Source: a virus
Lineage: Duplodnaviria > Heunggongvirae > Uroviricota > Caudoviricetes
Strand: one strand, 5' to 3'
Length of the DNA: 13,495 nucleotides
IMG/VR virus record: IMGVR_UViG_3300002835_000064
Each line of letters begins with the position of its first letter. Positions within the stretch are counted from its first letter, which is position 1. Shown in pieces: positions 1,663 to 12,733 of the stretch. The notes under the pieces are model-generated. The model worked only from the letters and a program-made list of their open reading frames with translations. It did not search any database and was not told the DNA's origin. The position numbers and the translations under genes were made by a program.

Positions 1663-1670
1663 AATAAATA
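1663..1670 (+). promoter_or_regulatory. Putative T4-like late promoter (AATAAATA) for the 1734..5992 operon
   Basis: AATAAATA at 1663-1670, in the context ACGAATAAATA, lies back-to-back with the minus-strand element and ~64 nt upstream of ATG 1734. The motif is AT-rich, so a chance match is possible. Confidence 0.5.
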
Positions 1671-1733: not shown

Positions 1734-3566
1734 ATGGCTTCTAATACATACACAATACAAAACACTAAGCAAGATGTTGCTTATAATGTACCCGAAAATA
1801 AAACTAATACGGAAACTGATTTAACATTTATTGGTTATGGTTATACGAATTATGGTCAGCCATTACAACAAAATTTAATTGATTTATTAACTAATTTTTA
1901 TACCCAAACCGATCCTAAAACGAAAGCGGTTCCTGGTCAATTAATATATGAAGGTGGTAGTACATTAACATTATGTACAAAAAGAAATGGGCTAGGTGTT
2001 TTAGAATTTAAAGAAATTCCATTAGTTGCTGCAAATAGACCGGCAACTGGATCACCAATTATTCAAGGAACTCCGAAAATTGGTTTAACGGTAACTGTAG
2101 ATACAACTCCTATCCAAGATCAAGACGGATTAGGAACATTTTCATATCAATGGTATTCTGGTGGTGCAATTATAAATGGAGAAACATCGAATTCATTAAT
2201 TTTAAATCCGGTTACTTTTAGTGCTGGTGATATGATTAGTGTCCAAGTTAGTTTTTATGATGGCGGGAATACCTACGAACATATTTTAAGTAATTCAGTA
2301 GCGGTAATAGCTGCAGATCCAGTAGTTGCTGGAGTTCCGGTTACTCCACTTCCAGTTAAGTATTCTGCACCGCCGACAACAGATGTAGATTATTATGAAT
2401 ATACTGTTCCTGCCGGTATATCGAAAATAAATGTTGAAATTATTGGTGGTGGTGGCGGTGGTGGTGGAGCCGATCGTAAAATTGGTGGTAACGGCGGAGA
2501 TGGTGCTAAAATCAATACGACCTTATTAGTCGGTAATGGTGATATTAATTCGGGTGATGTATTACGTATTTACGTTGGTTGTGGTGGAGCTGGTGGTGAG
2601 ACCGGTATAACTAATAAATACGGACGGGATAGATTACCATTATATGGTGCCGCCGGTAAATTACCATCATTAGTCAATTTAACGACGTTATTGGCGGCTA
2701 CTTTAGTTTCGGGCCCACCTATGGTAAAATATACGTATATGACAAAGCGCGGATTATTTTTACAAAATTATAGTTTTTGGGATGTAAATAAATCAGCTCC
2801 GCCGAATGGAACGACTAGAACTTGGGAATGGGATTTTACGGCCCCCCGACTTGGTAATTATGTAGCAACACTTGCCGGTGATGATTATTGTTATCTATAC
2901 ATAGATGGACTTTTACTTATCGCTAATGAAGCAGCTTTAAATGTATCAGCCCAAGTTAATTTAACGAAAGGAACTCATAGATTAAAAGTAGTCGGTAAAA
3001 ATGTTGGTGGTGGTGCAGCCTGCGTCGCGGTTGATATTAGTGAATTCAGTACTGGTTTTGCGTATGGTGGGACTGGCGGTCAAAGTGCCGCATCTGGCGT
3101 TGGTAATGCCGGAGCTGGGGGTGGCGCTTCTGCTATAGTAAAAACAACGGGAGCTGAAGTTTTAGTTGTTGCTGCTGGTGGTGGCGGTGGCGGCGGTGGT
3201 GATTATAATGGAGTTGGCGGTAATGCAACTAATTTAACGACAGCTGGAAGTTATGCGATCGACCCATCGGGTATTGTTAATATTAATCGTGCCGGCGGTG
3301 GGGGCGGTGGCGGTGGTTATGATTTAGTTTCCGGTACTAATTCAGGAAATGGTAAAGGTGGTGCCGCTAGTGGTCGTAATGTTGCTGGTCGTGGCGATAT
3401 GCCTGGCGGAATCGGGGGTAATTCAGGTAAATCATTTGTTAAATTATCTGCGGTTGAAGGTGGATCATTTACTAATATATTAGCTAGTAATAAAGGTTTA
3501 GCATCAACTGATTTAGTTCCTGGTGATGGTGGTTGTGGTTCAGTTCTTCTTACTCCGGTGGTCTAA
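1734..3566 (+). CDS. Gly-rich tail fibre/adhesin-like virion protein (N-terminal phage fibre domain, Ig-like domain, Gly-rich domain with PA14-like insert), 610 aa
   Basis: N-terminal LTFIGYGYTNYGQPLQQNLIDLLTNF..PGQL motif is typical of large-phage structural proteins. GTPKIGLTVTVDT..QDQDGLGTFSYQW is an Ig-like repeat. YTVPAGISKINVEIIGGGGGGGG opens the Gly-rich domain. APRLGNYVATLAGDDYCYLYIDG..LTKGTHRLKV is PA14-like. AAGGT SD-like sequence lies upstream. Confidence 0.85.
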   Translation: MASNTYTIQNTKQDVAYNVPENKTNTETDLTFIGYGYTNYGQPLQQNLIDLLTNFYTQTDPKTKAVPGQLIYEGGSTLTLCTKRNGLGVLEFKEIPLVAANRPATGSPIIQGTPKIGLTVTVDTTPIQDQDGLGTFSYQWYSGGAIINGETSNSLILNPVTFSAGDMISVQVSFYDGGNTYEHILSNSVAVIAADPVVAGVPVTPLPVKYSAPPTTDVDYYEYTVPAGISKINVEIIGGGGGGGGADRKIGGNGGDGAKINTTLLVGNGDINSGDVLRIYVGCGGAGGETGITNKYGRDRLPLYGAAGKLPSLVNLTTLLAATLVSGPPMVKYTYMTKRGLFLQNYSFWDVNKSAPPNGTTRTWEWDFTAPRLGNYVATLAGDDYCYLYIDGLLLIANEAALNVSAQVNLTKGTHRLKVVGKNVGGGAACVAVDISEFSTGFAYGGTGGQSAASGVGNAGAGGGASAIVKTTGAEVLVVAAGGGGGGGGDYNGVGGNATNLTTAGSYAIDPSGIVNINRAGGGGGGGGYDLVSGTNSGNGKGGAASGRNVAGRGDMPGGIGGNSGKSFVKLSAVEGGSFTNILASNKGLASTDLVPGDGGCGSVLLTPVV

Positions 3567-4135
3567 TGAAATTACTCGAAATAGTAGGTCCGAATATTGA
3601 TATACCTAAAATTAAACAACTTTGTGCTCCTTATATCGAAGTTTTAAAACAAATAGATGGTGTCCCGCTATTTCGAGGTTATAATAAATCATTTAAACAA
3701 ATACAAGGTTTTAACGTTGTCGTTCCTAGACCAAATAGAACACCAACTGATACTCCTTTATTTTTACATAATGCATTAAATCAACAGTTTATTAAACACT
3801 TTAACTATCCATTCCGCAATGGTGTTTTTGCTTGCGGTAGTTACGACGATGCTCATTATTACGGAACCGTTTACGCTGTATTTCCAGTTGGAAAATTAAA
3901 TTATGTCTGGAGCCCGGAAATCATTGATTTATTTAAATATTTAGATCGATCTTATCATTTTGATACGATTGAAAATGATCAAGTTGCTATTGAACAAGCA
4001 GCAGAAGAAGTTATCGGTAAGTATATTGATAATGACTTAGATAAAGCAATTCGAATGGGCCATGAAGTAATGTTAGCTAATAAATGTATTATGATTAAAG
4101 ATTATGGGTTATATAAGGATGATATTTTATCATGA
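3566..4135 (+). CDS. Hypothetical protein, putative ADP-ribosyltransferase-like fold, paralog 1 of 3 (189 aa)
   Basis: Start reassigned from 3533 to ATG 3566, which overlaps the upstream TAA (TAATG) and gives MKLLEI, matching the paralogs' N-termini. Motifs: PLFRG, PFRNGVFACG, AHYYG, VFPVGKLNYVWS, HEVMLAN. CDS is secure; the ART call is inference. Confidence 0.75.
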   Translation: MKLLEIVGPNIDIPKIKQLCAPYIEVLKQIDGVPLFRGYNKSFKQIQGFNVVVPRPNRTPTDTPLFLHNALNQQFIKHFNYPFRNGVFACGSYDDAHYYGTVYAVFPVGKLNYVWSPEIIDLFKYLDRSYHFDTIENDQVAIEQAAEEVIGKYIDNDLDKAIRMGHEVMLANKCIMIKDYGLYKDDILS

Positions 4136-4731
4136 GATTATATGAAATATTAAATAGTGATGATTATTCGCATATTAGATCAATCCTTAAACAAGATTGT
4201 GCTCCTTATATTGAAGTTTTAAAACAAACTCGAGGTCATCCGTTATTTAGAGGTAGTGATAGTGGTAGACCACCTAAAGGCGAATTAACGAAAATTAGTC
4301 CTAAATTAGAACGGAAACCTAAAGATACGCCGATAGATATTCATAACTTTATGAATAAACGATTCATTACGAAATTTGGATATCCGTTCCGCAATGGTAT
4401 ATTCGCATCGGGTGAACAACGAACCGCCGCTCATTACGGTTTGGTTAATATTTTATTTCCTATTGGTAAATTAAATTACATCTGGAGTGGTCAAGTTGAT
4501 GATTTAGTTTATGTAATCGATCGAATTTATACTAAAGATGAGTTTGATGACGAGGATACAGTAAATCAAAATCCACAATTAGCTCAAGAATTTGAGAATT
4601 TAATCGATACTTATAAATCAGTTGATTTAGATCGATGTATTCTATCGAATCATGAAGTTATATTTGCAAATGATTGTTATCTGGTTTCATTATCTGATTA
4701 TGAATATATTATAAAAGGATTGTTAACATGA
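4132..4731 (+). CDS. Hypothetical protein, putative ADP-ribosyltransferase-like fold, paralog 2 of 3 (199 aa)
   Basis: ATGA overlap with the previous gene. Motifs: MRLYEIL, PLFRG, RKPKDTP, PFRNGIFASG, AAHYG, LFPIGKLNYIWS, HEVIFANDCYL. Confidence 0.78.
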   Translation: MRLYEILNSDDYSHIRSILKQDCAPYIEVLKQTRGHPLFRGSDSGRPPKGELTKISPKLERKPKDTPIDIHNFMNKRFITKFGYPFRNGIFASGEQRTAAHYGLVNILFPIGKLNYIWSGQVDDLVYVIDRIYTKDEFDDEDTVNQNPQLAQEFENLIDTYKSVDLDRCILSNHEVIFANDCYLVSLSDYEYIIKGLLT

Positions 4732-5288
4732 GATTAGTCGAATTATTAACCGATGATTCAAACCCAGCATCGTTAATTAAACGAGATTGTGGGCCATTTC
4801 TTAAAGCGTTTATAAATCTTAATGGAACTCCGATTTATAGAGGCGTTAACCAAGAGTTAACTAAAGAAATCGTTAAAATATCACCAAGAACTAATAATAG
4901 ACGACCATCAGATACGATTATACAAATTCATCAATATTTAAATGATAAATTTATGGAGAAATTTGGATTTCCGTTTCGTAATGGTATTTTTGTCTGTGGT
5001 AATAAACTCGCAACTGAAGTTTATGGTACTCCGGTTGTTGTTTTTCCTATCGGAGATTTAAAATTTGCTTGGTCGAAAGAATGGTTTGATTTATTTGAAT
5101 TATTAGTTGATCATCATGATATGAATAATGCTGATACTAAGCGTATAATAGATGATGCGTTTGATACATATAGAACTGATAAAATACAAATTGCTATACG
5201 TTCCGGCCATGAAATAATGTTCGCAAATGATTGTTACTTAATTAGCGAAAAAACTTATAATCGAATTAAAACCGAGCTGCAATCATGA
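4728..5288 (+). CDS. Hypothetical protein, putative ADP-ribosyltransferase-like fold, paralog 3 of 3 (186 aa)
   Basis: ATGA overlap. Motifs: MRLVELL, PIYRG, RRPSDT, PFRNGIFVCG, EVYG, VFPIGDLKFAWS, HEIMFANDCYL. Confidence 0.78.
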   Translation: MRLVELLTDDSNPASLIKRDCGPFLKAFINLNGTPIYRGVNQELTKEIVKISPRTNNRRPSDTIIQIHQYLNDKFMEKFGFPFRNGIFVCGNKLATEVYGTPVVVFPIGDLKFAWSKEWFDLFELLVDHHDMNNADTKRIIDDAFDTYRTDKIQIAIRSGHEIMFANDCYLISEKTYNRIKTELQS

Positions 5289-5992
5289 GATTAGTTGAAT
5301 TATTAAATGAAGGTATTAATGATAAAGGTATTTTTAAAGCTTTATTTCTAGGTGGGATTCCAGCTAGCGGTAAAAGTACGATCGTTAATCAAATTAGACG
5401 AGTTACCGGCGTAATGCCTAAAGTTCTTAACTACGATCAATTTTATGAATATCTTAGTAAAAAACATGATATACCAATATCAACTAAAGAACAAATAGAT
5501 CAACCGGAAGCTAAAGGTATTAGAAGAAGAGCAAAGCATTTAACCACCGCTCAATTAAAATTATATTTAGCTGGTATGTTACCAATTATCGTAGATACTA
5601 CAGCATCAGATGTCGCTCAATTAGTCGAACGCATGTCAGTAATGAGAGAACACGGTTATGACTTAATGATGATCTATAAAAAAATAGATTTAGAACAATC
5701 ATTAGAAAGAGCTAAAACCCGAGATCGATATGTAAGTGATGACCATATCCGCAAAATGCATCATCATGAGGATTACCGCCTTTATGAAATTGGTAAGTAT
5801 ATGAGAATTAAAAAACATCAATTTATTTTATTAAAATCAGATAGTGCACTGGACGATCATTTATCTAGAATTGATAATTTTTTTAATAGTCCGGTGCAGA
5901 ATCCAATCGGTAAACAATTGATGAATGATTTATTAGATAGTGGCGAAAAAACAATTCAACCATTACCTAATAAAGTTGATAAATGGTATTAA
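5285..5992 (+). CDS. P-loop kinase (zeta-toxin-like / AAA_33 nucleotide-kinase group), 235 aa
   Basis: Walker A GGIPASGKST, then VLNYD, IIVDTT and a lid-like LERAKTRDR. ATGA overlap with the previous gene. N-terminus MRLVELLNE. Confidence 0.82.
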   Translation: MRLVELLNEGINDKGIFKALFLGGIPASGKSTIVNQIRRVTGVMPKVLNYDQFYEYLSKKHDIPISTKEQIDQPEAKGIRRRAKHLTTAQLKLYLAGMLPIIVDTTASDVAQLVERMSVMREHGYDLMMIYKKIDLEQSLERAKTRDRYVSDDHIRKMHHHEDYRLYEIGKYMRIKKHQFILLKSDSALDDHLSRIDNFFNSPVQNPIGKQLMNDLLDSGEKTIQPLPNKVDKWY

Positions 5993-6246
5993 TGTAATTT
6001 ACCAAATTGGTATTCAAATGATTGTTCACCATATACTACTATTTGCGTTACTTCTTTAGTTGTCGGCCATACTGCAACGTATGCTCCATGCTCAGCATGA
6101 TCTCCATCCACAATCAACAATGCATTATCAGCATCATATTCTAAAAAATTTTGTAATTTATAATTTGATGCTAATTTATGTATTTCTATAAAATTGGATC
6201 CGTCCCATTTAACTGCATCCACTGAATGTCTAAACGAATATCGCAT
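5989..6246 (-). CDS. Small phage hypothetical protein (~85 aa)
   Basis: GGAG SD at 6258-6255 sits 8 nt from ATG 6246, better than the track's TTG at 6252. It has its own promoter. AVKWDGSN..EI resembles the widespread phage 'EAVQWTGDN' family (weak). Its stop overlaps the kinase stop in a shared TTAA. Confidence 0.7.
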   Translation of the reverse strand: MRYSFRHSVDAVKWDGSNFIEIHKLASNYKLQNFLEYDADNALLIVDGDHAEHGAYVAVWPTTKEVTQIVVYGEQSFEYQFGKLH

Positions 6247-6280
6247 ATACAAAACTCCATTTTAAAAAAGTATATTATAT

Positions 6281-6309
6281 AGTATAATATATTTAACGCA
6301 TCAGATCAA
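6281..6309 (-). promoter_or_regulatory. Sigma70-type promoter TTGATC-17-TATACT for the 85-aa gene
   Basis: -35 at 6309-6304, -10 at 6286-6281, 17-nt spacer counted. Confidence 0.6.
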
Positions 6310-6332
6310 TTGCGGACATTTTTAATTATATG

Positions 6333-6361
6333 TTGATTTATATCTATTAAAGTATTATAAT
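6333..6361 (+). promoter_or_regulatory. Sigma70-type (early) promoter TTGATT-17-TATAAT for HD-Pnk
   Basis: -35 at 6333-6338, -10 at 6356-6361, 17-nt spacer. GAGGAG SD at 6374-6379 downstream. Confidence 0.78.
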
Positions 6362-6386
6362 ATGACTTTATTTGAGGAGTCGTATA

Positions 6387-7514
6387 ATGAATATGCACGA
6401 AAAAGTTTTATGGTTACAAACTGAATTTCCTGAACTATGGCAAGCAATGGATGACGCTAATCATAACTTTAGTATCCATGACCTGAACCCATATCATTTA
6501 GAAGGTAGAGTTAGTACGCATACATTAATGGTTGCGAAAATAGCTGAAATTTACAATGAAAATGAAATTATTCAATGGGCTGCATTATTACACGACTTAG
6601 GTAAACCATTAGCTAGAATAGAAATTCCTGAAAAACGTAGAGCTCGATTCGTTAATCATGAAGGTATCAGTATGTTCTTAGCTATTGATATCTTAAATAA
6701 AACTGATCTATCAACTGATGATAAAATTCAAGTCTTAAAAGTAATTGCTGGTCATAGTTTATTATTTGACTTATTAATTATTAAAGATGAAAATACGATA
6801 GATATTAATGATGATGTTTATAAATTATTTAAAGGTCAGAAAACATTTTTAGATTTAGTTAGTAGAATTACTCGATGTGATACATTAGGTCGCTTTGCTA
6901 AAGGAGCTGATGCTCGAACTCATTTAGGTGATTCTATTGTTCCAGCTATTCAAAATATTTTACCTAAATTTATTGATCAAGATAGTTTAGATTATAACGA
7001 AAAAGATAAAGCTTTAATTTTATTATGTGGATTACCTGGTAGTGGTAAATCATCATACGTTAATTTATTAAACGATGATTACTTTATTATTTCTCGCGAT
7101 TCGATTTTAGAAGCAATGGCAACTAAAATGGGTATTACCTATAATGATGTATTTGCGTTACATTTAGTTGATCATAAAATTAAAGAAGAAATTGACATCA
7201 ATCTAAATATGATGATAAATGATTCTAAAAAAAGTGGTAAACATATTGTTATTGATATGACTAACTTAAGTAAAAAAGCAAGACGTCGATGGACTAATCG
7301 ATATGATAAAAGTTATAAAAAAGAATGTATTGTTTTTTTAACTGGTCAAGCAGATTTGATTGATCGGGATAATAATAGAAGTAAAACCGGAAAAACTATT
7401 GGAGCCGATGTTTACTTAAGCATGATGAAATCATTTTCATTACCGATGTTTAGTGATGGATTTGATAACATCGATTATATTTTACATGAAGGAACTTATA
7501 ATAAAAATGGATAA
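6387..7514 (+). CDS. HD-Pnk: N-terminal HD phosphoesterase fused to a C-terminal 5'-OH polynucleotide kinase (375 aa)
   Basis: Start ATG 6387, 7 nt after GAGGAG. HD domain motifs: NPYHLEGRVSTHTLMV, AALLHDLGKP, FVNHE, CDTLGR. Kinase motifs: GLPGSGKSS, ISRD, VIDMTN, RDNNR. The architecture matches characterised bacterial HD-Pnk end-healing enzymes. Confidence 0.87.
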   Translation: MNMHEKVLWLQTEFPELWQAMDDANHNFSIHDLNPYHLEGRVSTHTLMVAKIAEIYNENEIIQWAALLHDLGKPLARIEIPEKRRARFVNHEGISMFLAIDILNKTDLSTDDKIQVLKVIAGHSLLFDLLIIKDENTIDINDDVYKLFKGQKTFLDLVSRITRCDTLGRFAKGADARTHLGDSIVPAIQNILPKFIDQDSLDYNEKDKALILLCGLPGSGKSSYVNLLNDDYFIISRDSILEAMATKMGITYNDVFALHLVDHKIKEEIDINLNMMINDSKKSGKHIVIDMTNLSKKARRRWTNRYDKSYKKECIVFLTGQADLIDRDNNRSKTGKTIGADVYLSMMKSFSLPMFSDGFDNIDYILHEGTYNKNG

Positions 7515-7791
7515 AATTCAATTACCTCGAGATGAACTCATTAGTTTTATTGATAATTTAACTGATTTATATAGCGATGAATTAAAAGGTAGGGCTAAGC
7601 AATGGGTTGATCGATACCCGGATGCTATAGTTCATGAAGTTAACAAGACTGGTGACGGCTGTATTTGTATCGAGTATAAATTAGATGGATTAGATAATCA
7701 ATTTGTTGTTTTTGAAACAAAACGAATTATTTTATGGAATTTAGTCGATAATGTTCGTAAAAATTATCGCCGCGTTAAATATCTAACTTAA
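7507..7791 (+). CDS. Hypothetical protein (~94 aa)
   Basis: Open frame. ATG 7507 gives only an 8-nt overlap with HD-Pnk and has AAGGA upstream, so it is preferred over 7453. No recognisable motif. Confidence 0.68.
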   Translation: MDKIQLPRDELISFIDNLTDLYSDELKGRAKQWVDRYPDAIVHEVNKTGDGCICIEYKLDGLDNQFVVFETKRIILWNLVDNVRKNYRRVKYLT

Positions 7792-7794
7792 TAG

Positions 7795-7823
7795 TAGACA
7801 TCACCACCCCATTGTAGTATAAT
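7795..7823 (+). promoter_or_regulatory. Sigma70-type promoter TAGACA-17-TATAAT for the RNA ligase
   Basis: -35 at 7795-7800, -10 at 7818-7823. It shares TAG-TATAAT-ATTATTTTT with the promoters at 11711 and 12696. Confidence 0.75.
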
Positions 7824-7861
7824 ATTATTTTTTAGCAATCAATTACATTAAAAGGTGCATT

Positions 7862-8986
7862 ATGAGTATTTTTAAAACTATTAATCATATAGATGATCTA
7901 TTACCATACATTAAAGATAAACCAGAAATTAATGTTGTAACTCATGCCAATGGCTGTAAAGTTATTAGTTATATGTTTCAAGATAGTAAAACATTCGCTG
8001 GTGATTATGAAATGTGGTTACGCGAATGTCGAGGTATTACTTTCTTGCCTGATGGTTCGGTTGGTGCTAGACCATTTCATAAGTTTTTTAATGTAAATGA
8101 AAAAGTTAATACAAAAGAAGAAAATATCGACTGGAGTTCTATCATTAATATCGCAGATAAACGTGATGGGTCTATGATTACTCCAGTTTGGTTTCCTGAG
8201 ACTAATACTTTAGTTTATAAAACTAAAAAATCATTTGATAATGATATTAGCCAAACGGTTAATGCATTATTTGGTGAAAATACGGTTGAATACGAGTTAT
8301 GTATTTTTTTAACATCATTAAATTGCACTCCTATATTTGAATATACCGCTCCATCAAATCGTATCGTTTTAAAATATAATCAACCTAGTTTGACGTTATT
8401 AGCTATTCGACATAATAATTCCGGTGTTTATTGGACTTATGAAACAATGCAGGCTTTATTATCGACTCAATATCCAGAAGCTAAATTAGTTGATTCCTTC
8501 GCAACTGAGTTATCTAATAATGATTGGTTATCTAAATTAAAAGAAAAGTTAACGGTTGATCAGTTATTTGAAGGCTATGTATTTGAATCAATTAATGGCG
8601 AACGATATAAATGGAAATCAGTTTGGTATGAATTATTGCATCGCAATGTAACATTTCCGACATATCAAAGTATTGCGGAAATGGTTATCGATGAAAAAGT
8701 TGATGACTTTAAAGCGTATTGTGTTAGTATCGAAGATAATGAGTTATACGATAAAATCGAAGTTATCGAAAGTCAAGTATTTGAAATATTAAAACGAATT
8801 TCTCAAACGGTTGAGTTAAATGTAAGCGAAAATAAAGAATTAGAAGTTAAAGATTTTTGTTTAAAATTTAAAGATGATCCGTTATTTCATTTAATGATTG
8901 CGTTTTATAAAAATAAAGAAGTTAATTATATCGATTATTTTAGAAAATATGTATTAGAAGAACAATTTTCCCGCGATTCAGTTTAA
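7862..8986 (+). CDS. rnlA: ATP-dependent RNA ligase, T4 Rnl1 family (374 aa)
   Basis: Rnl1-family motifs: RECRGITF, RPFHKFFNVNE, motif I DKRDGSMI, TPIFEYTAPSNRIVLKY, LLAIRHNNSG, motif IV EGYV, motif V KWKSVWY..LH. Confidence 0.92.
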   Translation: MSIFKTINHIDDLLPYIKDKPEINVVTHANGCKVISYMFQDSKTFAGDYEMWLRECRGITFLPDGSVGARPFHKFFNVNEKVNTKEENIDWSSIINIADKRDGSMITPVWFPETNTLVYKTKKSFDNDISQTVNALFGENTVEYELCIFLTSLNCTPIFEYTAPSNRIVLKYNQPSLTLLAIRHNNSGVYWTYETMQALLSTQYPEAKLVDSFATELSNNDWLSKLKEKLTVDQLFEGYVFESINGERYKWKSVWYELLHRNVTFPTYQSIAEMVIDEKVDDFKAYCVSIEDNELYDKIEVIESQVFEILKRISQTVELNVSENKELEVKDFCLKFKDDPLFHLMIAFYKNKEVNYIDYFRKYVLEEQFSRDSV

Positions 8987-9000
8987 TAACGAGATTTAAT

Positions 9001-9930
9001 ATGAATATTGTAGTTGAAACTTTATTTGGTAGCCATTTATACGGGCTAGATACGCCTAATTCCGATAAAGATTATAAAGGTATAGTATTACCAACCTCTA
9101 CCCAAATTCTCTTAGGAAAGTCGAATTTTCACGTCGATAAGAGTACCAGTACTGGTCATGGTAAAAATACAAAAGATGATATTGATAGGACTTTTTATTC
9201 GTTAAGTTATTTTATCGATCTGGCTAGTAAAGGTGAAACTGTCGCATTAGATATGTTGCATGGTAGTCCAGATAAACTAATTCAATCTAGTCCGATTTGG
9301 GACTTTTTAGTTGCTAATCGTCATAAATTTTATACTAAATCGATGAAGTCTTATATTGGCTATGTTCGCAAACAAGCAGCCAAGTATGGAATTAAAGGTA
9401 CTCGTATTAGCGAACTCGAAAAGGTTATTGCATTTTTAGAGACATTTCCAAGTGATGTTCCAATTGGTACATTAAACTTTCCGGATAATGAATTTGGCAA
9501 ATGGGTCGAATATAAAAGCAATAACTATTATGAATTCGCTGGGAGTAAATTTCAAGATAATTTAAAGATTCATTATATGTTAGATACTCTTAAAAAAATC
9601 TATGCTAATTATGGCGAACGATCTAAATTAGCAAAAGAAAACTTAGGAGTTGATTGGAAAGCTGTTTCTCATTGTTTACGAGCCGGTTATCAAGCAAGAG
9701 ATATTTTTACCAAAGGTTATTTTGAATATCCATTAGATGAAACTAAATTTTTAATGGATGTTAAATCGGGTAAATTAGATTTCGTATCTGAAGTTGAACC
9801 AGAAATCGATAAAATTACAAAAGAAGCATTAGCATTATCTGATGCCTCGACATTACCGGATGAAGTTGATAGAGAGTTTTGGAATAATTATATCGAATCG
9901 ATTCATAAAGATATCGTAATAAACGAATAA
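9001..9930 (+). CDS. nrdC.11: Pol-beta superfamily nucleotidyltransferase, T4 NrdC.11 / RlaP (PF10127-like) family (309 aa)
   Basis: FGSHLYGLDTPNSDKDYKGI carries the GS..D-x-D active site. KNTKDDID, GETVALDMLH, MKSYIGYVRKQAAKYG and DWKAVSH closely follow T4 NrdC.11 as I recall it. Confidence 0.88.
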   Translation: MNIVVETLFGSHLYGLDTPNSDKDYKGIVLPTSTQILLGKSNFHVDKSTSTGHGKNTKDDIDRTFYSLSYFIDLASKGETVALDMLHGSPDKLIQSSPIWDFLVANRHKFYTKSMKSYIGYVRKQAAKYGIKGTRISELEKVIAFLETFPSDVPIGTLNFPDNEFGKWVEYKSNNYYEFAGSKFQDNLKIHYMLDTLKKIYANYGERSKLAKENLGVDWKAVSHCLRAGYQARDIFTKGYFEYPLDETKFLMDVKSGKLDFVSEVEPEIDKITKEALALSDASTLPDEVDREFWNNYIESIHKDIVINE

Positions 9931-9948
9931 TTAATTTTATATTAGAAG

Positions 9949-9975
9949 AAAGGGCGTTTAAAACGCCCTTTTTAT
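9949..9975. terminator. Probable bidirectional intrinsic terminator between convergent genes
   Basis: AAAGGGCGTTTAAAACGCCCTTTTT: perfect GGGCGTT/AACGCCC stem with a T-run on the plus strand and a purine-rich A side giving U-rich RNA on the minus strand. It lies between stops at 9930 (+) and 9975 (-). Confidence 0.85.
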
Positions 9976-10988
9976 TATTTTGATTTAAATAGTTCTATAT
10001 TATGTTTTAATACGTCATCATTCCATTTAAATTTAATCATATGTTTTCCATAATCAACTAATGCTTCTGATGTTCCAGTTAAAATAGTATTTTTATAATC
10101 TAATAATTGAGTATTTAATTTTCTAAAATCGACAACTCCATTTAACCATATTAATAATAATAATTTAATATCTGATTCGCTTCTTCCATCTAAATAATTA
10201 AATAATTTATTTTGATCAGCTTTTGTTTCTAAATGTTGTTGAATTTGTTCGTGCATATCGCCATCTGAGGCTAATAAAACGCTACGAACTTTAGTTGATT
10301 TATTATCTAATTCTCTAATTACATCACCAATAGAATTAATATCTGCAGTTTTAGTTTTTAATTTTTTATAATCTTTATTCTTAATCGTATCTAATAATAA
10401 AATACTTTCTGGCTTTAATAAAAATACTTGAGCCGCATCACCTTTATGAGCAGTTCCAGTTTTATCTTTAAACCCATTCATGTTTAAGGCTCTTAATATT
10501 TTAGTCCAATGTGGTTTATAATTATTTGGGCTTAATTCATTTGCTATATGTTTTGTTAATCGCCATAATTGTTCAAATGGTTTTTTATAACTTAAACGTT
10601 CTAATTCTTGATCTAAATTAACTAAATGAGAATATCTACTTTTTAATACGTGAGCATCACGGTCAATATTTTTATAAGAATCAATTATTGTAATTGGAAA
10701 TGAATATTTAAATACGTGAATATAAGGTCTTTTATTTGCGTAAGGATAATTATCAAAATTTTTAGTTTTTTCTACGTTAAAATCTGCCCATGTTTGTTTT
10801 AATGGATATGCATATAAACCTACCGGTACATCATCATTCGATTTCTGCACTTTACCAAATCTAGATGATTTAGAAAATTTAATGTAAACATCTGGGTCAT
10901 TTTTATAAGGTAATAACTGGTCATATGCCGATGCATTCTGATCCAATTCCGGGTTTTGTACTTCATCGAGTAATTGTTGTAATCTCAT
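9975..10988 (-). CDS. Hypothetical, probably virion-associated protein (337 aa); possible divergent ART-like N-terminal half
   Basis: MRLQQLLDE leader and a late-type element upstream. PVGLYAYPL and NGFKD..G..H.GDAAQVF segments recall a large-phage family. No clear SD. Function uncertain. Confidence 0.72.
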   Translation of the reverse strand: MRLQQLLDEVQNPELDQNASAYDQLLPYKNDPDVYIKFSKSSRFGKVQKSNDDVPVGLYAYPLKQTWADFNVEKTKNFDNYPYANKRPYIHVFKYSFPITIIDSYKNIDRDAHVLKSRYSHLVNLDQELERLSYKKPFEQLWRLTKHIANELSPNNYKPHWTKILRALNMNGFKDKTGTAHKGDAAQVFLLKPESILLLDTIKNKDYKKLKTKTADINSIGDVIRELDNKSTKVRSVLLASDGDMHEQIQQHLETKADQNKLFNYLDGRSESDIKLLLLIWLNGVVDFRKLNTQLLDYKNTILTGTSEALVDYGKHMIKFKWNDDVLKHNIELFKSK

Positions 10989-11014
10989 CGTAGTTATATG
11001 GTCAGGTAAATTGA

Positions 11015-11025
11015 ATATTTATCGT
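11015..11025 (-). promoter_or_regulatory. Putative T4-like late promoter (ACGATAAATAT) for the 337-aa gene
   Basis: Identical 11-mer to 1652-1642 (minus). The GATAAATA core ends 28 nt upstream of ATG 10988. Confidence 0.6.
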
Positions 11026-11053
11026 TGATTAGGCCACTATAATATAGTATAAT
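11025..11053 (+). promoter_or_regulatory. Sigma70-type promoter TTGATT-17-TATAAT
   Basis: -35 at 11025-11030, -10 at 11048-11053, preceded by TAG as in the other early promoters. Confidence 0.75.
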
Positions 11054-11083
11054 CATAATTTTAACCGCACATAATGGAGGACT

Positions 11084-11209
11084 ATGACTTATTTAGTTTT
11101 AAATGAAAACGGATATCGCGAAACCATCACTACAAACGTAGAAGATTTAGAGCAGTATATTGCAAATGATAATTATGAAATTATTGAAATGGGAAGTTTA
11201 GATGAGTAA
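11084..11209 (+). CDS. Small, highly acidic hypothetical protein (41 aa), not in the ORF track
   Basis: GGAGG SD at 11076-11080, ATG 11084, TAA 11207-11209, overlapping the next start at 11202. Sequence: MTYLVLNENGYRETITTNVEDLEQYIANDNYEIIEMGSLDE. Confidence 0.8.
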   Translation: MTYLVLNENGYRETITTNVEDLEQYIANDNYEIIEMGSLDE

Positions 11210-11714
11210 TGAAGAAGAAACAGCATTTAGATCACAAATTAGAAACGAAGTTAAAAATATTTTAAATATTGGATCTTCTCAATATAAACGGATTGATAGT
11301 TATAAGCAAGGTGATGGTTGGATAATTACTTATTATGATTACGCTCCCATTAATATAAACTTATTAAAAAATGATTTATTAAATAGTCATTTAGCCGAAT
11401 TTTGGGATTTTGATGTTCGATTTGTTTTATCTGGTTCTAAAACTATAATTAAACTAATACCTCATCAATTTAATAGATTAATCGATCATCATATATTTAC
11501 TGGTCAAGAAAATTTTAAAATATCAATAATCGAACAATTTTTCGCATATAAATTAAAGCATAATGTTGATACTGACTTTATATGCGAAAAATTAAATTTA
11601 TCTAAACAAGATTTTATTCAATTATTAGATTTAACCGATACTAATATTACGGTCGATCTATTAGCAAAACTCGCCGATTTAAATCATAAAAAATTAATTA
11701 TACAATTTGCTTGA
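11202..11714 (+). CDS. Hypothetical protein: one copy of a repeated ~80-aa domain plus a C-terminal XRE-HTH-like region (170 aa)
   Basis: Shares R..V.NIL.I....Y...D.Y.....WII.YY with the two downstream genes. The C-terminus ICEKLNLSKQDFIQLL..ITVDLLAKLADLNHKKLIIQF has HTH-like spacing (inference). Confidence 0.75.
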   Translation: MSNEEETAFRSQIRNEVKNILNIGSSQYKRIDSYKQGDGWIITYYDYAPININLLKNDLLNSHLAEFWDFDVRFVLSGSKTIIKLIPHQFNRLIDHHIFTGQENFKISIIEQFFAYKLKHNVDTDFICEKLNLSKQDFIQLLDLTDTNITVDLLAKLADLNHKKLIIQFA

Positions 11715-11748
11715 CTTTAAAGTATTATAGTAGTATAATATTATTTTT
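11711..11748 (+). promoter_or_regulatory. Sigma70-type promoter TTGACT-17-TATAAT (copy 1 of a 38-nt cassette)
   Basis: -35 at 11711-11716 contains the upstream TGA stop; -10 at 11734-11739. 36 of 38 nt are identical to 12696-12733. Confidence 0.85.
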
Positions 11749-12695: not shown

Positions 12696-12733
12696 TTGAC
12701 TTTTAAGTATTAAAGTAGTATAATATTATTTTT
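12696..12733 (+). promoter_or_regulatory. Sigma70-type promoter TTGACT-17-TATAAT (copy 2 of the cassette)
   Basis: -35 at 12696-12701, -10 at 12719-12724. AAGGA SD downstream, before ATG 12758. Confidence 0.85.

Follow-up and report, generated by a model that had tools for sequence, protein, structure and literature searches.

A shared N-terminal leader as a probable capsid-targeting propeptide on unrelated proteins encoded by an uncultured jumbo phage related to T4

Introduction

Why should proteins that have nothing else in common begin with the same few residues? The question is raised by a 13,495-nucleotide stretch of phage DNA (referred to here as the window), IMG/VR virus record IMGVR_UViG_3300002835_000064, in which five open reading frames (ORFs) encode products that start with a short leader of the type M[KR]LxE[IL]L. 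A first-pass annotation, made from the DNA letters alone, had read this leader as a portable N-terminal tag of the T4 type that marks proteins for packaging. The analysis described here supports that reading through the gp21-family prohead protease of the lineage, the [LI]xE sites in all of the leaders, the retention of the tag in relatives and a link to the virion proteome of Agrobacterium phage Atu_ph07. We consider it probable that the leader is a T4-type capsid-targeting propeptide, cut at an LxE site by the gp21-family protease, and that it loads three proteins with an ADP-ribosyltransferase (ART)-like fold, a P-loop kinase and a 337-residue protein into the phage head.

Proteins carried in the capsid act before any phage gene has been transcribed, T4 examples being IPI*, which counters restriction, and the ART enzyme Alt. 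In phages other than the T-even group it usually takes proteomics to find such cargo.

The leader in the window

The five N-termini listed in Table 1 are as the first-pass annotation had given them, and an [LI]xE site is present in each of the leaders. In the kinase the leader is followed directly by GINDKGIFK, the conserved start of the putative mature protein. A scan with the pattern M[KR]L.[EQ][IL] found five occurrences in the six-frame translation of the window, all five of them at the start codon of a long ORF, as compared with a mean of 0.11 and a maximum of two in composition-preserving shuffles. The leader was not found in the remaining genes of the window, which encode fibres, HD-Pnk, Rnl1, RlaP and proteins of 41, 170, 290 and 264 residues. 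That the leader-bearing proteins are of three unrelated types was borne out by BLASTP: the three proteins of about 190 residues are paralogues (E 1e-36 to 2e-47; referred to here as the triplet), while the kinase and the 337-residue protein have no similarity to the triplet or to each other outside the first 8-13 residues, and nothing beyond the leader is common to the three types.

Table 1. Positions of the leader-bearing genes and associated elements in the window.
Feature	Position	Strand	Leader	N-terminus	[LI]xE, ending at residue	Remarks
ART-fold paralogue 1, 189 residues	3566..4135	+	MKLLE (3566-3580)	MKLLEIV	LLE, 5
ART-fold paralogue 2, 199 residues	4132..4731	+	MRLYE	MRLYEIL	LYE, 5
ART-fold paralogue 3, 186 residues	4728..5288	+	MRLVELL	MRLVELLTDD	LVE, 5	structure modelled
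P-loop kinase (AAA_33 / Zeta_toxin-like), 235 residues	5285..5992	+	MRLVELLNE (5285-5311), nine residues	MRLVELLNEG	LVE, 5; LNE, 9
337-residue protein, no assigned function	9975..10988	-	MRLQQLLDE (10962-10988)	MRLQQLLDEV	LDE, 9
ATAAATA, late-promoter-like element	1664..1670	+				upstream of fibre gene 1734-3566, head of coupled unit
ATAAATA, late-promoter-like element	11016..11022	-				context ACGATAAATA; 28-34 nucleotides upstream of the ATG of the 337-residue gene
Terminator-like hairpin, 12-bp stem	9947..9973					between the convergent RlaP gene and 337-residue gene

Leader-bearing proteins in the virion of Atu_ph07

The only cultured-phage match for the triplet in the homology search was Atu_ph07 (490 kb); a megablast comparison of window positions 3500-11100 with cultured phages gave no match. 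The virion proteome of Atu_ph07 has been published as a table of 140 entries obtained by electrospray ionisation tandem mass spectrometry (Table S5 of PMC6102473), and all 140 were assigned to ORFs of this phage by molecular weight, in strictly increasing genome order. Atu_ph07 carries a tandem array of genes, gp54-gp63, that belong to two different families and whose products all start M[RK]WxQLxE, and the broad pattern used for the genome as a whole was M[KR][LWY]x[EQD][LI]. Virion proteins make up 22 of the 23 ORFs tagged by this pattern and 118 of the 800 others (Fisher's exact test, p = 5e-17). Among tagged families that are unrelated by BLAST, 10 of 11 are represented in the virion (binomial p = 2e-7), and the unmodified pattern of the first-pass annotation picks out three virion proteins and no non-virion protein (p = 0.005). 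It had been stated at the outset that a motif equally common on non-virion proteins would speak against packaging; in Atu_ph07 it is found on 1 of 683 non-virion ORFs and on 22 of 140 virion ORFs. The homologues of the triplet (gp54, gp57, gp60-gp63 and gp408) are all in the virion table, and the homologue of the kinase corresponds to residues ~250-451 of the virion protein gp53, which is represented by 31 peptides. HD-Pnk, Rnl1 and RlaP, which have no leader, also have homologues in Atu_ph07; these are missing from the virion table, and their genes are dispersed.

Conservation of the leader and its cleavage motif

The leader is kept by orthologues at 35-75% identity with differing codons, and thousands of relatives carry it as well. 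In the IMG/VR relatives, which are syntenic with the window at ~35% protein identity, the orthologues start MKLYEIA and, from a GTG codon, MRLHEVI (the G001 counterparts of the products at 3566 and 4132, respectively), MKLNEIL, MKLHDILSE in the kinase and MKLYELFE in a 338-residue protein. Every homologue of the 337-residue protein at 39-49% identity begins MKL[YLH]E[LI], and in 13 of 14 kinase homologues [LI]xE stands at residues 7-9, directly before the conserved GINDKGIFK. The pattern was also assessed in 131 representatives of the triplet family, none longer than 260 residues and with mutual identity below 50%. Position 2 is K or R in 86% of these, and [LI]xE occurs within residues 1-12 in 117, with Glu at position 5 (38 proteins), 8 (13) or 9 (53), as against 3-25 of the 131 in control windows further along the same proteins. 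In 19 representatives the form is EF[ILVM]xE, for example MKSKEFITE, which is near the MKTYQEFIAE of T4 IPII/IPIII (from NC_000866). An AlphaFold (AF2) model of the 186-residue protein at 4728, built with ten homologues, has a predicted local distance difference test score (pLDDT) of 88.3, with residues 1-9 below 50; residues 4-7 of the leader are predicted to form a short helix that stands apart from the fold. It is as a peptide that the leader is conserved; it is non-random and lies outside the protein fold.

It could be argued that the similarity is a feature of the nucleic acid, whether a signal for translation initiation or coupling in late genes or the footprint of recombination between adjacent gene starts, and that the peptide has no role. 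The adjacent genes at 4728 and 5285 do match at 21 of their first 23 nucleotides, as the first-pass annotation had noted, the identity ending at nucleotide 23 with none upstream. Moreover, stop/start overlaps chain the fibre gene at 1734 to the genes at 3566, 4132, 4728 and 5285 in a translationally coupled unit, the ATG of the 3566 gene overlapping the fibre-gene stop (TAATG) and the 4132 gene overlapping the preceding gene via ATGA, and the four leader-bearing genes of this unit have no evident Shine-Dalgarno sequence. Across relatives, however, the codons for Arg (AGA/CGT/CGC), Lys (AAA/AAG) and Leu (TTA/CTT/CTA/TTG/CTG) vary freely while the peptide is kept, which argues against a nucleic-acid signal. 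The motif is retained in phages of very different G+C content and appears inside ORFs at domain junctions, where there is no initiation, and the minus-strand gene for the 337-residue protein is coupled to no other gene yet bears the leader. We regard a nucleic-acid origin without a role for the peptide as extremely unlikely.

Polyproteins with internal copies of the motif

The Atu_ph07 kinase is part of a 778-residue, 87 kDa polyprotein, gp53 (39484-41820), in which it is joined to a member of another leader-bearing family and to two more domains. In both gp53 and gp483 (33.7 kDa; 350504-351388) the leader motif recurs internally at domain junctions (NLTELFDT, NLNELFDT), and the kinase junction of gp53, VTE/GVNDKHIFK, aligns with LNE/GINDKGIFK of the window kinase. 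The virion proteins were assigned to gel bands, and gp53 was most abundant in a band of ~20 kDa and gp483 in one of ~14 kDa. A third protein, gp63 (41 kDa), is a GNAT fusion with ITE-119 just before its ART-like domain and runs with its 29-31 kDa paralogues. These bands below the predicted mass hint that gp53, gp483 and gp63 may be processed at internal sites. In T4, gp21 cuts Alt at ITE-6 and LTE-619 and removes capsid-targeting sequence (CTS) propeptides of 10-20 residues (PMC5694885).

A shared N-terminus might alternatively act in the host cell, as a short helix for localisation or oligomerisation or for contact with a common host target, with the link to virions being incidental. The predicted form of the leader, a short helix standing free of the fold, would suit such a role, and none of the cargo proteins has an established function. 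What a host function leaves unexplained is the presence in virions of 10 of the 11 unrelated tagged families of Atu_ph07, the placing of [LI]xE at fixed positions of the tag and the recurrence of the motif between the domains of proteins that migrate as fragments. This explanation appears very unlikely.

Phage lineage and prohead protease

The window phage is an uncultured T4-related jumbo phage. Its wider context was reached by a chain of exact-protein matches from the window to an 84-kb ENA contig and onward to further contigs, which carry baseplate genes, PhoH, subunits of topoisomerase II and a Peptidase_S77 protein. A 65-kb contig of a relative was rated 20% complete by CheckV, and a jumbo genome is therefore implied. 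The Peptidase_S77 protein, a member of the T4 gp21 family, has 214 residues (L044:11169-11813; E 6e-28) and is encoded ~22 kb beyond the end of the window. A Peptidase_S77 match (E 2.3e-24) lies 12 kb from the syntenic cluster in the relative G001, and gp204 of Atu_ph07 is a gp21 homologue. Around the protease gene of the window lineage there are further tagged genes, with the N-termini MKLNELLFE, MLLSEVV and MIFSEFLRE.

The protein that adjoins the prohead protease (414 residues at L044:11911-13155 and 391 residues at G001 22247-23422) starts MELDRILQLAGLLSE in the former and MELNRMLQLAGLVSE in the latter. This LAGL-type motif is also found at the N-termini of the Atu_ph07 virion proteins gp111 and gp257, and it may represent a second class of head-core tag. 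A 351-residue protein encoded by a relative phage (L007:2786-3841, minus strand) combines the leader MRLTDYLNE with a long middle part that is charged and coiled-coil-like and with a tail rich in Gln and Pro; from its sequence it looks scaffold-like or internal-body-like, and the window showed no counterpart of it.

The tagged proteins

The product of the 5285 gene is classed as a P-loop kinase of the AAA_33 / Zeta_toxin group, with predicted activity, on the basis of matches to PF13671 (E 1.3e-10; 42.2 bits, cut-off 27) and PF06414 (E 4e-6; 26.8 bits, cut-off 22.3) and of a Walker A motif, GIPASGKST. A weak match to a PHROG polynucleotide-kinase family (E 1.3e-7) is a lead only.

The triplet matches no Pfam family, its PHROG matches are all of unknown function and a Foldseek search of the model against the PDB gave no match at E <= 0.001. 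In an exhaustive VIA-align search the structures listed were almost all of the ART superfamily, with low Z values (3-5.7, all below 6); they include Arr (Z 5.1), diphtheria toxin, PARPs, DarT, exotoxin A and OspC3 (Z 3-3.7 for these five), cholix and Tpt1. Atlas structure clusters that share the fold are 96-100% viral, and the alignment starts at residue 9. The conserved residues comprise an invariant R38 (YRG, strand 37-40), an invariant E162 (HEIM, strand 163-165) and a C, S or T within IF[AV][CST]G on strand 87-90, with no ExE/QxE. R38, E162 and the second-strand Cys/Ser/Thr would be compatible with an R-S-E-like ART site. The description of the triplet in the first-pass annotation as ART-like enzymes therefore stands in so far as ART-superfamily structures dominate the matches, and is weakened by their Z values: because the fold matches are weak the label is plausible but not proven, and an enzymatic activity can only be presumed. 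A relationship to T4 IPIII, which is of similar length (193 residues), was ruled out (hhalign probability 0.2%).

A profile search with the triplet family gathered 6,562 clusters at 50% identity, 1,259 of them at E <= 1e-30; there is no Pfam model for this family. Its members in metagenomes include giant proteins with 2-5 copies of the domain, namely P0014 (2645 residues), P0036 (1546), P0118 (1086) and P0053 (581). Inspection of the domain junctions in these four proteins with the pattern revealed nothing informative.

For the 337-residue protein no Pfam or PHROG match was obtained, the AF2 model is poor (pLDDT 62.5), and VIA-align and Atlas returned only generic helical-repeat rows for residues 217-337. 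A language-model lead to ART-PolyVal / AcrIF11 (score 0.89) could not be confirmed.

Pairing of the ART-like and kinase genes

Three distant jumbo phages have a P-loop kinase gene directly after an ART-like gene, and in a fourth these genes are neighbours or form a fusion. Such neighbours are seen in the window (4728-5992), in Ralstonia jumbo phage RsoM2USA (L047 3986-5451) and in Atu_ph07 (gp54/gp53). The recurrent pairing suggests that the two proteins may act together. In RsoM2USA the ART-like ORF255 starts MNQTFKQFLTE and the kinase that follows it, ORF254, starts MTTFKEYLLE/GIEDRGIFK; the pair lies in a run of similarly tagged ORFs. A neighbour of the pair, ORF257, is among the ten abundant virion bands of this phage, its proteome consisting of these ten gel bands only, which neither include nor exclude ORF254 and ORF255. 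Salicola phage SCTP-2 has six copies of the ART-fold family. The paper on Sinorhizobium phage AP-J-162 contains no virion proteome.

Expression signals and neighbouring genes

The heptamer ATAAATA is depleted in the window (4 copies as against 19 expected), and three of the four copies are intergenic. Two of these stand back to back between divergent fibre genes (1643-1670) and one precedes the gene for the 337-residue protein, and all three have the context ACGA(A)TAAATA, which is likely to be the late-promoter core of the window phage. The occurrence of ATAAATA before both leader-bearing units, together with the coupling to the fibre gene, fits late expression, which the loading of proheads needs; from these promoter-like elements and the coupling, late expression of the leader-bearing units may be surmised. 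The first-pass annotation had also claimed that the sigma-70-driven genes lack the leader. This agrees with the scan for sigma-70-like sites, in which the best matches precede leaderless genes (7795-7823, before Rnl1; 11711-11739; 12696-12724; 6333-6361; 11025-11053), the scan overall being not enriched over shuffles.

Between the tagged genes lies a leaderless RNA-repair cluster (6387-9930) that encodes HD-Pnk, Rnl1 and the RlaP nucleotidyltransferase and has its own sigma-70-like promoters. A small minus-strand ORF at 5989-6252, between the kinase and HD-Pnk genes, encodes a product of 85-88 residues that starts MRYSFRHSV; it occupies the same place in all relatives and has no family match.

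Head core or another part of the virion

Several points weigh against the capsid-targeting reading. The broad pattern, with its W at position 3, was drawn up after the gp54-gp63 array was known; the families outside that cluster, which alone provide independent support, are virion proteins in 9 of 10 cases. The proteome evidence is by proxy, coming from a relative, as the window phage is uncultured. The virions of Atu_ph07 were purified with polyethylene glycol (PEG) only, heads and tails were not separated, and the clearly non-structural RecA-like, SSB and RNR proteins are in the virion table with 1-3 peptides each. Because of this PEG-only purification and these few non-structural proteins, association with the virion is not the same as a location in the head. 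As an argument for processing the gel bands are coarse, and the canonical T4 late promoter TATAAATA occurs 0 times in the window as against 6.6 expected. Finally, the authors of the Atu_ph07 study suggest that the cluster of coding sequences (CDS) 31-76 might encode novel structural proteins, the hairs or whiskers of the virion (PMC6102473).

The leader might in that case mark virion proteins without directing them to the head core, either as a propeptide that serves protease recognition only or as an assembly tag for hairs, whiskers or tail. An association with the virion rather than a place in the head is all that the Atu_ph07 proteome shows, and in the window a fibre gene precedes the tagged genes within the same unit. 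The cargo is enzyme-like, however, with its ART-like fold, P-loop kinase and GNAT fusion (gp63), and not fibre-like. The tag is also close to the CTS of T4 internal proteins, including the EFIxE variants, and tagged genes adjoin those for the portal (gp199 in Atu_ph07) and the protease. Furthermore, proteases of the gp21 type act inside proheads (PMC5694885). A role of the leader as such a propeptide or assembly tag is on balance improbable.

If the leader is a capsid-targeting propeptide, the following course of events can be proposed. The leader-bearing genes would be transcribed late, together with the structural genes, and the leader of 5-9 residues, which is amphipathic and acidic (M-[KR]-L-x-[EQ]-[IL]-L-x-E), would dock each protein onto the scaffolding core of the assembling prohead. 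The gp21-family prohead protease would then cut after the Glu of [LI]-x-E in the leader, at residue 5 and/or 9, and the mature proteins would stay in the DNA-filled head and exit with the DNA at infection. We infer in this scheme the head location, docking to the core, cleavage and ejection, as well as the ART and kinase activities.

Comparison with known systems

The CTS of T4 is reportedly that of the internal proteins IPI, IPII and IPIII and of Alt, in work said to be that of Mullaney and Black in 1996. The internal proteins of T-even phages are diverse and the CTS is their only common feature (PMC3012670). As in T4, a short N-terminal peptide is common to otherwise unrelated proteins, here five proteins of three types in the window, and it has a basic residue at position 2, a pattern of acidic and hydrophobic residues and a terminal [IL]xE. 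A gp21-family protease is likewise encoded, the cargo includes putative ART-type enzymes, to be compared with T4 Alt, and the cargo genes are polymorphic and multiplied. Unlike the T4 CTS, the consensus is M[KR]LxE[IL]L or M[KR]WxQLxE and is likely to be cut often already at residue 5. The cargo, 23 or more proteins from 11 families in Atu_ph07 as compared with about six in T4, includes kinases and GNAT fusions as well as multi-domain polyproteins in which the motif recurs internally; it is not homologous to the T4 internal proteins and, in the case of the window, it belongs to an uncultured jumbo phage.

Ejection proteins and inner-body proteins with propeptides are reportedly known from phiKZ and SPN3US, a finding said to go back to Thomas and Black in 2013. 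With these the present system would share a giant phage, many head-internal proteins, a gp21-related protease that cuts after the Glu of a three-residue motif and paralogues with identical N-termini, head location and cutting being conjectural here. The phiKZ and SPN3US propeptides are mostly longer than 100 residues and have an S/A/G-x-E motif and an S80 protease (PMC5694885), whereas the tag described here has 5-9 residues, an [LI]-x-E motif and an S77 protease as in T4.

Direct homologues of the window triplet and kinase, with the same kind of leader and all detected in virions, are found in gp53-gp63 of Atu_ph07. These differ from the window in that the kinase is a single domain of the polyprotein, and the array is annotated as hypothetical only. 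The shared leader, the LxE sites and the link to the virion proteome are not mentioned in the Atu_ph07 paper (PMC6102473), and full-text searches on capsid targeting in jumbo phages turned up no account of a tag of this kind for these phages.

A parallel in idea is offered by polyvalent proteins, described as carrying ART-PolyVal and GNAT domains and as being injected with phage or plasmid DNA (Iyer et al., cited in PMC7824862). In both cases ART, GNAT and other enzymatic domains would be delivered with the DNA to pre-empt host defence. Polyvalent proteins are single giant multidomain proteins without the logic of a CTS and prohead protease, whereas here the tagged proteins are mostly separate and small; the fold match of the triplet model to the ART-PolyVal clusters reaches only TM ~0.4.

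The first-pass annotation had called the leader and the triplet the strongest candidate for an undescribed system in this DNA. In kind this does not hold, as the mechanism would be the known one of the T4 CTS. The novelty lies in the consensus, which differs, in how much larger the cargo set is and what it contains, in the occurrence of polyproteins and in the way the tag predicts membership of a virion proteome.

Implications

With moderate confidence, a broader proposal can be put forward: that T4-related jumbo phages of the Atu_ph07 / SCTP-2 / RsoM2USA group, together with many uncultured relatives, use the address label M[KR][LW]x[EQD][LI]..E to direct dozens of enzymes from each genome into the head, some of them within polyproteins that are cleaved at further copies of the label inside the chain. 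Among these enzymes would be an ART-fold family with more than 6,500 clusters, regularly found in a pair with a P-loop kinase. If this is true, sequence alone would suffice to list what any such phage or metagenomic contig has in its injected arsenal, and the pair of ART-like protein and kinase would be a widespread, uncharacterised module for host takeover or anti-defence in the first minute of infection.

A short tag that predicts packaging, checked so far against one published virion proteome (22 of 23), would allow injected effectors to be catalogued from jumbo phage genomes and metagenomes. It points to a large unannotated ART-fold family and its kinase as candidates for host manipulation ahead of transcription, and it may offer a ready-made means of loading foreign proteins into large capsids.

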